DNA from: Promethearchaeati archaeon SRVP18_Atabeyarchaeia-1
GTDB taxonomy: Archaea > Asgardarchaeota > Atabeyarchaeia > Atabeyarchaeales > Atabeyarchaeaceae
Reading direction: 5' to 3'
Length of the DNA: 64,000 nucleotides
Assembly: GCA_037308085.1 (NCBI GenBank)
Contig: CP147779.1
Location: 448,001-512,000, forward strand
Each line of letters opens with the position of its first letter. Positions within the stretch are counted from its first letter, which is position 1. The position numbers were made by a program, and so were the translations under genes. Positions 447 through 60,574 of this stretch are shown in pieces. A model generated the notes under the pieces. It saw nothing but the letters and a program-made list of their open reading frames with translations. It was not told where the DNA came from and did not search any database.

Positions 447-1481
447 TAATATAAACTCCCATGAAACCGGTTGATCCTGCCGGACCCAACCGCTATCGGA
501 GTGGGACTAAGCCATGCTAGTCGAGCGCCTCGGACTATGGCGAGGCGCGGCGTACGGCTCAGTAACACGTGGTTAACCTAACCTCCGGACGGGGATACCT
601 CCGGGAAACTGGAGCTAATACCCGATAGGTGAATAGTTCTGGAATGGCTTTTCACCCAAACGGCTTTGACACCATGTTTGCCAACGTCGCCAGAGGATGG
701 GACCGCGGCCGATTAGGCTGTTGGTGGGGTAACGGCTCACCAAACCGACAATCGGTACGGGCCGTGAGAGCGGTAGCCCGGAGATGGGGACTGAGACAAG
801 GCCCCAGGTCCTACGGGGCGCAGCAGGCGCGAAACCTCCGCAATGCTGGAAACAGCGACGGGGCTACTCCGAGTGCCGTCCGCTAAGGGCGGCTTTTCCA
901 CAGTATAAAAAGCTGTGGGAATAAGGGGAGGGCAAGGCTGGTGCCAGCCGCCGCGGTAAAACCAGCTCCTCGAGTGGTTGGGATGTTTATTGGGCCTAAA
1001 GCGTCCGTAGCCGGCCTTGTAAGTCCTTGGCTAAATCCGTCAGCCTAACTGACGGCGTGCTGAGGATACTGCTTGGCTTGGGGGCGAGAGAGGCTGAGGG
1101 TACTACTGGGGTAGGGGTGAAATCCTATAATCCCAGTAGGACCACCTGTGGCGAAGGCGTTCAGCTGGAGCGCGCCCGACGGTGAGGGACGAAAGCTAGG
1201 GGAGCGAACCGGATTAGATACCCGGGTAGTCCTAGCTGTAAACTATGCGGGCTAGGTGTTGGAGCGGCCACGTGCTGCTCCAGTGCCGAAGGGAAGCCGT
1301 TAAGCCCGCCGCCTGGGGAGTACGGCCGCAAGGCTGAAACTTAAAGGAATTGGCGGGGGAGCACCACAAGGGGTGAAGCCTGCGGTTTAATTGGACTCAA
1401 CGCCGGGAAACTTACCGGGGGCGACAGCAGAATGAAGGCCAGGTTGACGACCTTGCTTGACAAGCTGAGAGGTGGTGCATG

Positions 1482-2392
1482 AGGCCTTCAGGTCGTCCTA
1501 AAACTCTTCGCGGCTTCCTCTAACCTCTCTACGATGTGACTCATAGTCGTCTCTGTAGGAAGGCTGTTGACAAGTGTTGGCGAGGGAGTTCAAATGAACT
1601 CGCTTGTGCCTTTCTTAGGAGGGGATCATGACGATCGTTGACGACAAGAGGAAGTATGTTCTGGTCAAAACGAAGAGTCTTATCCGTCGTCTGCGCCAAC
1701 AAGACTGTGGGGCTCTGCAAGGAGTATACAGGCACGTTGATGACTTGGTTGAGTGGAATACCTTTCGAGACTGGGCGTATAGAGGCTGCTTCCGGATGCC
1801 TCTCAACGTGTTCGCAAGGTTGAAGAAGACATATGAGATCAAGGACGTGCCGCGAGTGGTCACAGAGACTCAATGGTACGCAGAGACACGCAAGAGAGCA
1901 GCAAGAATAATGCACGAACGCCACCCCCATAAGGAGTGGCTATCGCGAGCAGCGAAGGCTGGCGGTGAAGCTGTAAAAGCCAAGTACGGGATCAGGTATC
2001 TGACAAAACTCTCTGGATCTGCCATACATTCATCAGCCAGATACCGATACAAGGATGGATATGGAATAGAATACCGTAGCCGCCTGGAACTGCGGGTTGC
2101 GGATTTGCTGCGCAAACATGGATACAAATTCGATTATGAACCGGAGATAGATGGATACATCCCTGACTTCCTAATCAACCACACAATAATCGAGGTTAGC
2201 GGATACTTTCGCGACCACGATTATCTTTCAAGACTCCAGATCAAACTTGCAGACCTAACCACTAAGGGTTGGGATATCATCGTTGTATGTGAACCGCGAA
2301 ACAAAGCTGCTCTCCAGCAGGCGCTCGTAGGAATACGAGTCAAGGCAATTATGACAACGGATGAGTTCGGACGATGGCTGTAGGTCTGCGAA
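1482..2392 (+). mobile_element. 16S BHB intron 1 (911 nt, about E. coli 1057) carrying an endonuclease ORF
   Basis: Central helix TGCA/TGCG, bulges TG^A and AA^G; splicing gives GTGCATG|GCCGTCGTCAG. Confidence 0.93.
1628..2383 (+). CDS. Intron-encoded PD-(D/E)xK endonuclease (T7 endonuclease I/DUF559-like)
   Basis: YRSRLE...YEP...YIPDF...IIEVSG motif; stop codon lies in the intron's BHB stem. Confidence 0.75.
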   Translation: MTIVDDKRKYVLVKTKSLIRRLRQQDCGALQGVYRHVDDLVEWNTFRDWAYRGCFRMPLNVFARLKKTYEIKDVPRVVTETQWYAETRKRAARIMHERHPHKEWLSRAAKAGGEAVKAKYGIRYLTKLSGSAIHSSARYRYKDGYGIEYRSRLELRVADLLRKHGYKFDYEPEIDGYIPDFLINHTIIEVSGYFRDHDYLSRLQIKLADLTTKGWDIIVVCEPRNKAALQQALVGIRVKAIMTTDEFGRWL

Positions 2393-2741
2393 GCCGTCGT
2401 CAGTTCGTGCCGTGAGGTGTCCTGTCAAGTCAGGCAACGAACGAGACCCCTGCTTACAGTTGCTACCAGGCTTAGAAATGGGTCTGAGCACACTGTAGGG
2501 ACTGCCGGCGATAAGCTGGAGGAAGGAGGGGGCCACGGCAGGTCAGTATGCCCCGAATCCCCCGGGCCACACGCGGGCTGCAATGGTTGGGACAATGGGT
2601 TCCGACCCCGAAAGGGGAAGGTAATCCCGAAACCCAATCTCAGTTGGGATCGAGGGCTGCAACTCGCCCTCGTGAACATGGAATCCCTAGTAATCGCGCG
2701 TCATCATCGCGCGGTGAATACTGTCCCTGCTCCTTGCACAC

Positions 2742-2774
2742 ATCGTGTCTAGGAAGCGCTTAGCGCGAGTGTAG
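2742..2774 (+). other. 16S BHB intron 2 (33 nt, about E. coli 1397)
   Basis: Helix GCAC/GTGT, bulges AC^A and AG^A; splicing gives TGCACAC|ACCGCCC. Confidence 0.92.
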
Positions 2775-2880
2775 ACCGCCCGTCGCTCCACCCGAGTCGG
2801 GTTAGGGTGAGACGTAGCCTTTTTGGCCACGTCGAACCCAGGCTCGGCAAGGGGGGAGAAGTCGTAACAAGGTAGCCGTA

Positions 2881-3047
2881 AGACTCCGTAGGGGATGCTT
2901 GTGATTGTGATGGGGTGGCATCCGCCTTTTGCTTTGTATGCAACGACTTTGTTGCGGCTTGAGGTGTTCTCGTAGGTTCCGTGTTGCGCGTCTGATGTGT
3001 TTGGGATGCGTTTCCGAGGTTTCGTTTGTCTCCTTGGAGTCCGGTAA
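2881..3047 (+). other. 16S BHB intron 3 (167 nt, helix 45, about E. coli 1513)
   Basis: Helix GCCG/CGGT, stem GACTCC/GGAGTC, bulges TA^A and AA^G; splicing gives GCCGTA|GGGGAACC. Confidence 0.92.
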
Positions 3048-3292
3048 GGGGAACCTGCGGCTGGATCACCTCCTATGAATCCCCACCCGTTAGGGTGGGG
3101 TTCTTCCGCCGCGATTGTTGCCGAGGGGTTGGCTTACATGATTGTTGTGGGGTTTCGAGCCCGCCTACCTGCTTCTCACTGCTCATTTTGTTTTCCTGGT
3201 TATCCGATTAGCCATGTTATTGTCTAGCATTTGCTTTCTCTTTTCTGGATGGCTTCGGATTCGGAAAGCTGGGCGTGTTACTGTAGTTGGTG

Positions 3293-59614: not shown

Positions 59615-59699
59615 AAAAGGAACCTCAGCCATGGACGATAAAGTTAAAATCCATTGACCGACCCTTCTGGCATCAGCAACTGCACACACCAGCACCGCA

Positions 59700-59804
59700 G
59701 GGCCCGTGGCCTAGTCAGGATAGGGCGCCAGCCTCCTAACTCATTTCTCCCCGCAAACCGGAGAGAGCTGGTGGTCGAGGGTTCAATTCCCTCCGGGCCC
59801 GCCA
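59700..59804 (+). tRNA. tRNA-Arg(CCT) with canonical 37/38 intron
   Basis: GGGCCCG acceptor, CCAGC-CTCCTA|A-GCTGG, CCA encoded. Confidence 0.92.
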
Positions 59805-59846
59805 CAACCACATATCAAGCCCTCACATGCGCTTTTCTTATGTAAC

Positions 59847-60371
59847 ATGTCTCCTTCTCACTCCGCCACCCCGAATATCTCACACCGCAAAGGATTCTAC
59901 AAGATCCACATGGACAAACGCCAGAAAGAAATCTACGGCAGAAAACTAAAAGGAACAAACTACATGTTGCACTTGGGTCCAGAGCTGTTCAACAAAATGA
60001 TGAGGAACCACACGAATAGCATGCAAAGGAAACGATGGGTCCCTTGTGAAAGAGAAGAGAGGATACGGAGAGCGAAAGAAGCTTGCACACTCGAGGAAGC
60101 TCGAAAAAGGACCAGATTACAGTACGAATGGAGGACGCTGACAAAGGAAGGGTTAGAAGAAGAGGTTCGGCAAATGCCGCTAAAGGAGATCGCAGGCAAA
60201 TACAACGTGTCACAAACCCCCACCGTGGCGAGGAAATGCAGGAAACTCGGAATTCCGATACCAGAACGCGGTTACTGGACGAAGGTCTACTGGTCAAGAG
60301 TCAAATCGTTGGAAAGGAATAAGATAGAAAAAGGCGTCCAGCGAGAAAGTGAAACGAACTATCGTAATTGA
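59847..60371 (+). pseudogene. 5'-truncated paralog of the LAGLIDADG gene at 16860-17753
   Basis: IYGRKLKG..Y...GPELFNKMM...RKRW.PC...EACT...RGYW aligns with its C-terminal half; no LAGLIDADG motifs. Confidence 0.8.
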
Positions 60372-60404
60372 TAACGAGCGATGAAATAGATTACAGAAAA
60401 GGAG

Positions 60405-60574
60405 CGCCCTGGGCGGGACTACCGGGGATCATCGCGTGTTGTTCTTGGTTTTTGGGTGATTCCACTCGAACCCGCGTCCTAGGTTTTGTCCCTCTGCGTT
60501 GGGTGTGACAGACCTAGATGTTAACCGCCTCGTGGCCGTCTCACGGTGTGTGAGGAGGCTTGCACCACCAGGGC
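60405..60574 (-). tRNA. tRNA-Asp(GTC) with three introns (14/15, 38/39, 59/60)
   Basis: GCCCTGG/CCAGGGC acceptor with G73; spliced loop CT-GTC-AC. Confidence 0.85.

Follow-up and report, generated by a model that had tools for sequence, protein, structure and literature searches.

Can one protein splicing machinery serve rRNA, tRNA and mRNA alike in an archaeon? The question is raised by a 64,000-nucleotide stretch of DNA (hereafter the window; positions 448,001 to 512,000 of contig CP147779.1, assembly GCA_037308085.1) from Candidatus Atabeyarchaeum deiterrae-1 (G000), an Asgard archaeon from wetland soil whose genome consists of one contig of 2,808,651 bp. Genes of all three RNA classes are interrupted in it by inserts bounded by bulge-helix-bulge (BHB) motifs. 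An earlier note on this DNA had proposed about 30 such introns between positions 464 and 60574, and this picture was borne out: we counted about 27, six in rRNA, about 20 in tRNA (in eight of ten genes) and one in an mRNA, that of ahcY, or about 29 when two candidate pre-rRNA processing stems are included. The outer borders also fit, 464 being the start of the 16S rRNA gene and 60574 that of tRNA-Asp on the minus strand. With a probability that we put at about 0.85, BHB splicing would be a general route of RNA maturation in this lineage, predicted to include about ten mRNAs, some of them essential (valS, gatE, rpl39e and cbf5).

In order to call an intron, the break was defined independently, by comparison with intron-less relatives, by recovery of a tRNA cloverleaf or by restoration of a reading frame and its motifs, and a BHB was then tested at that exact place. 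The relatives compared were a sister species (G001), the complete genome of Atabeyarchaeia-2 from the same family (G002) and two further relatives (G003 and G008). The DNA runs containing the window stretch are wetland and freshwater-sediment metagenomes. The inserts sit exactly where intron-less relatives are continuous, their removal by the BHB rule restores rRNA, cloverleaves, and reading frames or motifs, and in their conservation or polymorphism among sister genomes they behave as introns do.

Split coding genes

The mRNA intron of the window lies in ahcY, encoding S-adenosylhomocysteine hydrolase (39178-40468, plus strand) and assigned by Pfam and by comparison with G002. Its AdoHcyase and AdoHcyase_NAD domains are split over two overlapping frames (39178-40245 and 40154-40468), whereas the G002 gene is one uninterrupted frame of 420 aa, relative to which G000 has 34 extra bases; other relatives whose match spans the break have open frames of at least 418 aa. 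The extra bases form a putative 34-nt intron of the hBHBh' type (40226-40259, between exons 39178-40225 and 40260-40468), with an outer helix ACC/GGT, a central helix CCAG/CTGG, bulges TGT and ACA and an inner stem of 6 bp. A cut after the second bulge base would join G to AG, giving a glutamate codon and restoring the motif GHPSEVMDMSF, identical to that of G002. The same 34-nt insert occurs at the same position in the sister species (29 of 34 bases identical; 85% amino-acid identity) and in two metagenome contigs. Across these variants the stem pair 7/24 reads U-G, U-A or C-G, and the remaining changes fall in the loop or the bulges. Between G000 and G001, the proportion of synonymous differences (pS) in exon 2 is 0.86 and that of nonsynonymous differences (pN) 0.055, a pN/pS ratio of 0.064 (0.12 in exon 1), and ahcY is therefore not a pseudogene. 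The pattern of substitution indicates that the sequence downstream of the break is translated, in the frame that removal of the insert restores, and that it is under strong purifying selection. The protein has been deposited in public protein sets as a 355-aa product.

Further mRNA introns were sought by tiling G002, by reciprocal tblastn between G000 and G002 and by a search for conserved junctions. Eight more coding genes of G000 carry BHB or relaxed-BHB inserts, and in each of them removal of the insert yields contiguous Pfam profile coordinates or conserved motifs. A 41-nt BHB insert in cbf5 leaves the DKCLD domain in exon 1 and TruB_N, TruB_C_2 and PUA in exon 2, while a strict 41-nt BHB insert in gatE, common to G000 and G002, separates positions 2-30 of the GatB_N profile from positions 45-276. 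The insert of pcm (28 nt, central helix CGCC/GGCG) lies between positions 2-62 and 61-208 of the PCMT profile, and that of valS (31 nt, relaxed motif) between positions 2-73 and 73-413 of tRNA-synt_1, with the junction GIDRNG-LPIE. In rpl39e the insert measures 49 nt and is absent from G002, and the fused peptide matches positions 1-42 of the 42 of Ribosomal_L39; in glyA (38 nt) the junction reads EGWPG-E-RVYAGC. Two cases are weaker: endoQ (54 nt), whose junction GTGD-FTSPRW we take to be the conserved motif in the lack of a Pfam match, and mtaP (35 nt, junction DVVG-M-TAYPE), which is bounded by a relaxed BHB only. In genome coordinates, the predicted exon junctions are 383797|383839 in cbf5, 2219067|2219109 in gatE, 305603|305632 in pcm and 242874|242924 in rpl39e. 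In addition, a radical-SAM gene is interrupted in G002 only, where a strict 53-nt BHB intron splits its CxxxCxxC motif. On these predictions G000 has at least nine split coding genes, and mRNA introns would number of the order of ten, not hundreds.

The earlier note had tied its reading to a spliced ahcY and to the existence of other mRNA introns, and the sequences point to both, through the conserved ahcY insert and the eight further genes. Its suggestion that other apparently frameshifted genes may be spliced stood for these eight BHB-type cases; it did not for some breaks that have no BHB, nor for one that is a selenocysteine TGA. As a separate observation, genes of S-adenosylmethionine (SAM) and one-carbon metabolism make up four of the nine G000 hosts (ahcY, mtaP, glyA and pcm), to which the G002 radical-SAM gene can be added; this clustering may reflect chance or a common regulatory logic.

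Several other candidates were set aside. Four conserved "fusions" proved to be neighbouring genes, a start codon lying within what had passed for an intron (an rpoN start, an MNT/HEPN pair and others), and six short breaks that the G000-G002 tblastn comparison returned lack a BHB. Two genes show a frame-breaking excess over G002, again with no BHB, one of 16 nt at 17940-18246 (minus strand) and one of 22 nt at genome positions 2712765-2712786; these may be true frameshifts or a different form of recoding. An AhpC/TSA gene that seemed to lack its N-terminal part (47059-47397) proved to be one frame with an in-frame TGA, conserved in G002 and read as a selenocysteine codon. This AhpC/TSA-type redoxin (46921-47397, plus strand) carries the TGA at 47056-47058 in the context LLRGIS-TGA-PYCRGH, and the open frame of G002 begins at PYCRGH. 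The sequence context makes a selenoprotein with UxxC as its redox centre probable, and the G000 genome has been published as having selenocysteine (Sec) machinery. In-frame inserts of 1.3-1.6 kb between G000 and G002 were likewise rejected as introns. About 13 of them, of 1.27-1.63 kb, are seen in large genes when G000 is compared with G002, the frame being the same before and after the insert (for example at genome positions 339241-340505, 521362-522938, 526263-527758 and 611715-613267). They are probably inteins with homing endonucleases; as far as a term search showed, inteins are not mentioned in the 2024 paper on mobile elements. Finally, an IS200/IS605 element (30162-31712, plus strand) has an intact tnpA and a tnpB (30544-31712) spread over three overlapping frames. 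Neither an intact tnpB paralog in the genome nor a fitting BHB was found, and tnpB is probably decayed.

Frame breaks of this kind, namely the 22-nt insert near 2,712,786, the 16-nt excess and tnpB, lend some ground to the view that the broken coding genes are pseudogenes or the product of errors in sequencing or assembly, and that only the tRNA and rRNA inserts are true introns. We regard it as extremely improbable: the ahcY insert keeps its length and position in the sister species and in independent metagenome contigs, the pN/pS ratio of its exon 2 is that of a constrained protein, the assembly is a curated, complete one that long reads have validated (PMC11291895), and in nine genes the break coincides exactly with a BHB site that can fold and where the canonical cut restores conserved motifs. 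Only marginally more credible, and still very improbable, is passage of the breaks at translation, by programmed frameshifting or by ribosomal bypassing of the 28-54 nt inserts. The inserts are indeed short hairpins, and selection on ahcY exon 2 shows that the frame is restored, not by what means. The short hairpin of the T4 gene 60 bypass offers a comparison. Set against translational passage, however, the ahcY sequence shows neither an evident slippery site nor a pair of codons for take-off and landing, and the borders match the cutting rule of the splicing endonuclease EndA to the base in ahcY, pcm, gatE, rpl39e, cbf5 and valS. The same motif bounds inserts in the non-translated rRNAs and tRNAs of the same genome, and splicing has been shown experimentally for the cbf5 precedent (PMC2738675).

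Introns and endonuclease genes of the rRNA loci, and tRNA introns

Both the 16S and the 23S rRNA genes give Rfam matches far longer than their models. Alignment with the intron-less 16S and 23S rRNAs of G002, G008 and G003 delimits six inserts, none of them present in G002, which interrupt universally conserved rRNA stretches. In all six a fully paired 4-bp central helix is accompanied by 3-nt bulges exactly at the borders and by an inner helix of 4-10 bp. The 16S gene (464-3074, plus strand) was identified by Rfam (SSU_rRNA_archaea, 464-2889) and by blastn with the 16S of G002. Its mature 3' end (3048-3074) was missed by Rfam, and the last 28 nt of the G002 16S map by blastn to 3047-3074. Intron 1 of this gene (1482-2392, 911 nt) is absent from four relatives, carries an open reading frame (ORF) at 1628-2383, and has a central helix TGCA/TGCG with outer and inner helices of 5 bp each. 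Intron 2 (2742-2774, 33 nt), an insert relative to the same comparison set, has a central helix GCAC/GTGT and an inner helix of 6 bp with no outer helix, and intron 3 (2881-3047, 167 nt) a central helix GCCG/CGGT and an inner helix of 7 bp; splicing of the latter would join ...GCCGTA to GGGGAACC... The 23S gene (6867-10208, plus strand; Rfam LSU_rRNA_archaea) contains introns of 33 nt (8804-8836; central TAAT/ATTA, outer and inner helices of 4 bp), 32 nt (9580-9611; central CTTG/CGGG, inner helix of 10 bp) and 106 nt (9715-9820; central CGTG/CGCG, inner helix of 10 bp).

Since fragmented rRNAs exist in other organisms, one can imagine that the rRNA inserts are excised with no religation of the exons, or retained as expansion segments, and the outer exon-exon helix is indeed missing in three of them. 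Yet in all six the central helix and the 3-nt bulges stand in exact register within universally conserved rRNA, the ligase RtcB is encoded, and archaeal rRNA inserts with BHBs are established as introns (PMC4496867, PMC7714728). We consider fragmentation or retention improbable, if less so than the two alternatives weighed for the coding genes.

The earlier note had counted four endonuclease genes or remnants. We found three loci, one of them a broken gene that yields two ORF pieces. The ORF of 16S intron 1 (1628-2383, plus strand, 251 aa) is a candidate nuclease of the PD-(D/E)XK type, not LAGLIDADG, suggested by weak signals: a Pfam match to Phage_endo_I below the cut-off (E 0.0026), a C-terminus reading ...IPDF...IIEVSG, and leads in a protein atlas to DUF559, Phage_endo_I and TnsA-like clusters. 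Against the PDB, its match to T7 endonuclease I was not significant. The broken gene is a double-motif LAGLIDADG endonuclease remnant (3330-4025, plus strand; LAGLIDADG_3, E 6.8e-09 on 3717-4025), which lies outside any current intron. Its ORF pieces 3342-3677 and 3717-4025 are parted by one in-frame stop (3675-3677), and both motifs are visible in translation. The last codon of this remnant adjoins another copy of the 16S 3' end and spacer (4024-4133, plus strand; first copy 3047-3155). The two copies are 81% identical, the values for the direct repeats D1 and D2 being 81% and 71%. As read from the sequence, the second copy does not pair as a BHB with the 5' site at position 2880. Taken together, the remnant and the duplicated 3' end look like what is left of an earlier intron that carried an ORF and occupied the same rRNA site. 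The third locus, an ORF of 297 aa with a LAGLIDADG domain (16860-17753, plus strand; LAGLIDADG_3, E 1.9e-06), has no BHB intron context that we could find. It may be a free-standing or an intein-derived homing endonuclease, and shows weak similarity to an RFC intein region. The stretch of 1.5 kb that holds it (16422-17939, from tRNA-His to the next gene) corresponds to a gap of about 0.14 kb in G002.

The flanks of the pre-rRNA form long stems. Both 16S 3'-end copies can pair with the 16S 5' flank, with duplex energies of -113 and -105 kcal/mol, and two alternative pre-rRNA processing stems seem possible from the duplication. The duplicates (3047-3155 and 4024-4133) also carry a hairpin with compensatory changes. 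The 16S-23S spacer measures 3.8 kb here and about 0.9 kb in G002, and encodes a 301-aa protein (5131-6036, plus strand) whose C-terminus gives a RING-finger signal that falls short of the Pfam cut-offs.

Among the ten tRNA genes of the window, the Asn, His, Asp, Glu, Val, Leu and Arg tRNAs are recovered by ARAGORN only once the inserts are removed. The three introns of tRNA-His(GTG) (16249-16421, minus strand) lie at 16407-16369, 16341-16317 and 16295-16264, and the last two are absent from G001 and G002. The initiator tRNA-iMet(CAT) (15768-15982, minus strand) has four inserts by alignment with G001 and G002, with strict BHB matches scoring 15 and 14. Two of them were placed, at 15841-15814 and 15808-15783, the latter by eye against a G002 row that ends about there, and two lie upstream; ARAGORN gave no complete four-intron solution. 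The G002 ortholog has been published with three introns, and as aligned the G000 gene has one insert more. The differences in tRNA-His and iMet are, as far as the alignments tell, recent gains or losses. The introns of tRNA-Asn(GTT) (44980-45126, plus strand), at 45031-45054 and 45064-45109, are both conserved in G001 and G002 and identical to the published coordinates (genome 493031-493054 and 493064-493109). Three introns are predicted in tRNA-Asp(GTC) (60398-60572, minus strand), at about 60564-60531, 60504-60485 and 60464-60420. Two each were placed in tRNA-Leu(TAG) (18376-18515, minus strand; 18482-18461 and 18421-18394), in tRNA-Val(CAC) (35056-35190, plus strand; about 35094-35118 and 35127-35158) and in tRNA-Glu(TTC) (45194-45318, plus strand; about 45217-45232 and 45265-45295). 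The one intron of tRNA-Arg(CCT) (59700-59804, plus strand), at 59739-59765, occupies the canonical position 37/38. tRNA-Ala(CGC) and tRNA-Ala(TGC) (the latter at genome positions 464212-464138, matching the published coordinates) have none, in agreement with the published table. The His, iMet and Asp genes were missed both by Rfam and by plain ARAGORN. The T-loop of tRNA-Glu (45296-45302) reads UCCGAAU in G000 and G002, with C at position 55, and UUCAAAU in G001; U55 is normally invariant in tRNA, and C55 is unusual.

Splicing machinery, chance level of the motif and intron turnover

What could process these RNAs? The genome encodes two EndA paralogs (222 and 242 aa; PF01974), located at genome positions 202595-203260 (minus strand) and 623838-624563 (plus strand), each with an N-terminal and a catalytic domain, and one RtcB (PF01139). 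The first EndA is close to crenarchaeal EndA chains, matching the Aeropyrum pernix chain 3p1z_B at 6e-46. Because two paralogs are present, EndA is probably of the two-subunit (alpha-beta)2 type with crenarchaeal broad specificity, a type linked in the literature to non-canonical introns (PMC5829648). In the proposed mechanism, the splicing endonuclease would cut after the second base of each 3-nt bulge and the single RtcB ligase would join the exons. Cutting and ligation of these RNAs, as well as the heterotetrameric form of EndA, we infer from sequence. The role of EndA and RtcB as a general splicing system, which the earlier note had put forward, finds support in introns in three RNA classes and in a genome encoding the two EndA paralogs and RtcB.

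Several observations weigh against so general a role. A scanner that looked for a central helix of 4 bp, a pair of 3-nt bulges and flanking helices found the bare BHB motif no more often in the window than in shuffled sequence, whichever score threshold was applied. Across the whole genome, ORF-fusing inserts with BHB borders show no excess over decoys in which the 3' site was shifted by 1-2 nt, a null result that was unchanged with or without a hexamer coding filter and when a conserved fused junction in G002 was required. With a motif at chance frequency, a BHB is evidence only at independently known breaks, and the lack of an excess over decoys implies that mRNA introns are few and that the motif is unusable for finding or counting them. 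The motif is, moreover, relaxed in several introns, three rRNA introns having no outer helix, and valS and mtaP a central helix of 3 bp. Exact borders are uncertain for the D-arm introns and for two iMet introns. Lastly, the second EndA is divergent, with a weak match to the P. aerophilum chain 2zyz_A (PAE0789), so that its structural-subunit role comes from weak similarity only.

At independently defined breaks, the motif stands in exact register in six of six rRNA inserts and in ahcY, gatE, pcm, rpl39e and cbf5, while valS, mtaP and several tRNA introns have relaxed forms. No group I or group II ribozyme was matched by Rfam in the window, either at the gathering threshold or at E values up to 5. 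One high-scoring BHB on the minus strand (10559-10377) was dropped, as it folds weakly (z -2.3).

The introns distinguish the two complete sister genomes at many places, namely in all six rRNA sites, two introns of tRNA-His, rpl39e, ahcY and the radical-SAM gene, and a continuing gain and loss of introns appears visible in this comparison. Duplication of introns, for which the earlier note had seen evidence, was not confirmed: no similarity was found between one intron and another, or between any intron and the rest of G000 or G002, and what is duplicated is the 16S 3' end with its spacer. A further proposal is that expression of core genes in Atabeyarchaeia, for translation (valS, gatE, rpl39e and cbf5) and for the SAM and methyl cycle (ahcY, mtaP, glyA, pcm and the radical-SAM gene of the sister genome), might depend on mRNA splicing by EndA and RtcB as a routine, possibly regulated step. 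We advance it tentatively, with rather more doubt than belief; if true, protein-catalysed pre-mRNA splicing would be a routine step of gene expression.

Relation to known BHB systems

Coding-sequence BHB introns have so far been treated as a single curiosity, that of cbf5, and the scale of the phenomenon would change if a single protein splicing machinery were needed by about ten protein genes, by the 16S and 23S rRNAs and by almost every tRNA, in a host from the archaeal group closest to eukaryotes. Such genomes would offer a tractable system for the origin and spread of endonuclease-spliced introns. There are practical consequences as well: default gene callers truncate or split essential genes, as in the 355-aa AhcY, entire tRNA genes such as those for His, iMet and Asp escape tRNA finders, and the organism can go undetected in surveys based on 16S.

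That tRNA genes of Atabeyarchaeia and Freyarchaeia are rich in introns has been described by Valentin-Alvarado 2024 (PMC11291895) and in the preprint of Goswami 2026, and the tRNA part of our findings is already published. For the same genome, our intron counts agree with those of PMC11291895 for seven listed tRNA genes of the window, except that we placed two in tRNA-Leu where three are published. The table for G000 in that paper lists only 40 tRNAs, with no Asp and a sole His, located elsewhere and marked "possible pseudo"; the tRNA-His, iMet and Asp genes of the window are absent from it. Term searches of two Atabeyarchaeia papers, this one among them, and of the 2026 preprint turned up nothing on introns in rRNA or mRNA, and in the literature searched we found no paper that describes the rRNA introns or the multi-gene mRNA introns.

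Introns with BHBs and LAGLIDADG homing endonucleases are known from the rRNAs of Thermoproteales and Desulfurococcales (Jay and Inskeep 2015, PMC4496867). As in those systems, several 16S and 23S BHB introns occur here, some with endonuclease ORFs, and their presence varies among close relatives. In contrast to them, the introns here reside in an Asgard archaeon from soil, four of the six (32-33 or 106 nt) have no ORF, the ORF of the large 16S intron is not of the LAGLIDADG type, and the LAGLIDADG remnant lies outside any current intron, next to a duplicated 3' exon.

For mRNA, two precedents can be compared. The 5'-UTR of HVO_1309 in Haloferax volcanii contains a BHB intron (Schwarz 2020, PMC7714728); there, as in our predictions, the splicing endonuclease acts on an mRNA. 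The Haloferax intron is located in a leader that is not translated, whereas the inserts described here interrupt coding frames, so that splicing would be obligatory for making protein. The closest parallel is the BHB intron in the cbf5 pre-mRNA of Crenarchaeota (Watanabe 2002; Yokobori 2009, PMC2738675), stated in 2020 to be the only archaeal case in a coding sequence (PMC7714728). Atabeyarchaeum shares with it a short, BHB-bounded, frame-breaking insert whose excision, in the known case by the tRNA-splicing enzymes, would restore the protein, and its own cbf5 is split between DKCLD and TruB_N. It differs in that splicing is here predicted from sequence, and in that at least nine genes of an Asgard host would be concerned, among them metabolic enzymes, an aminoacyl-tRNA synthetase and a ribosomal protein.

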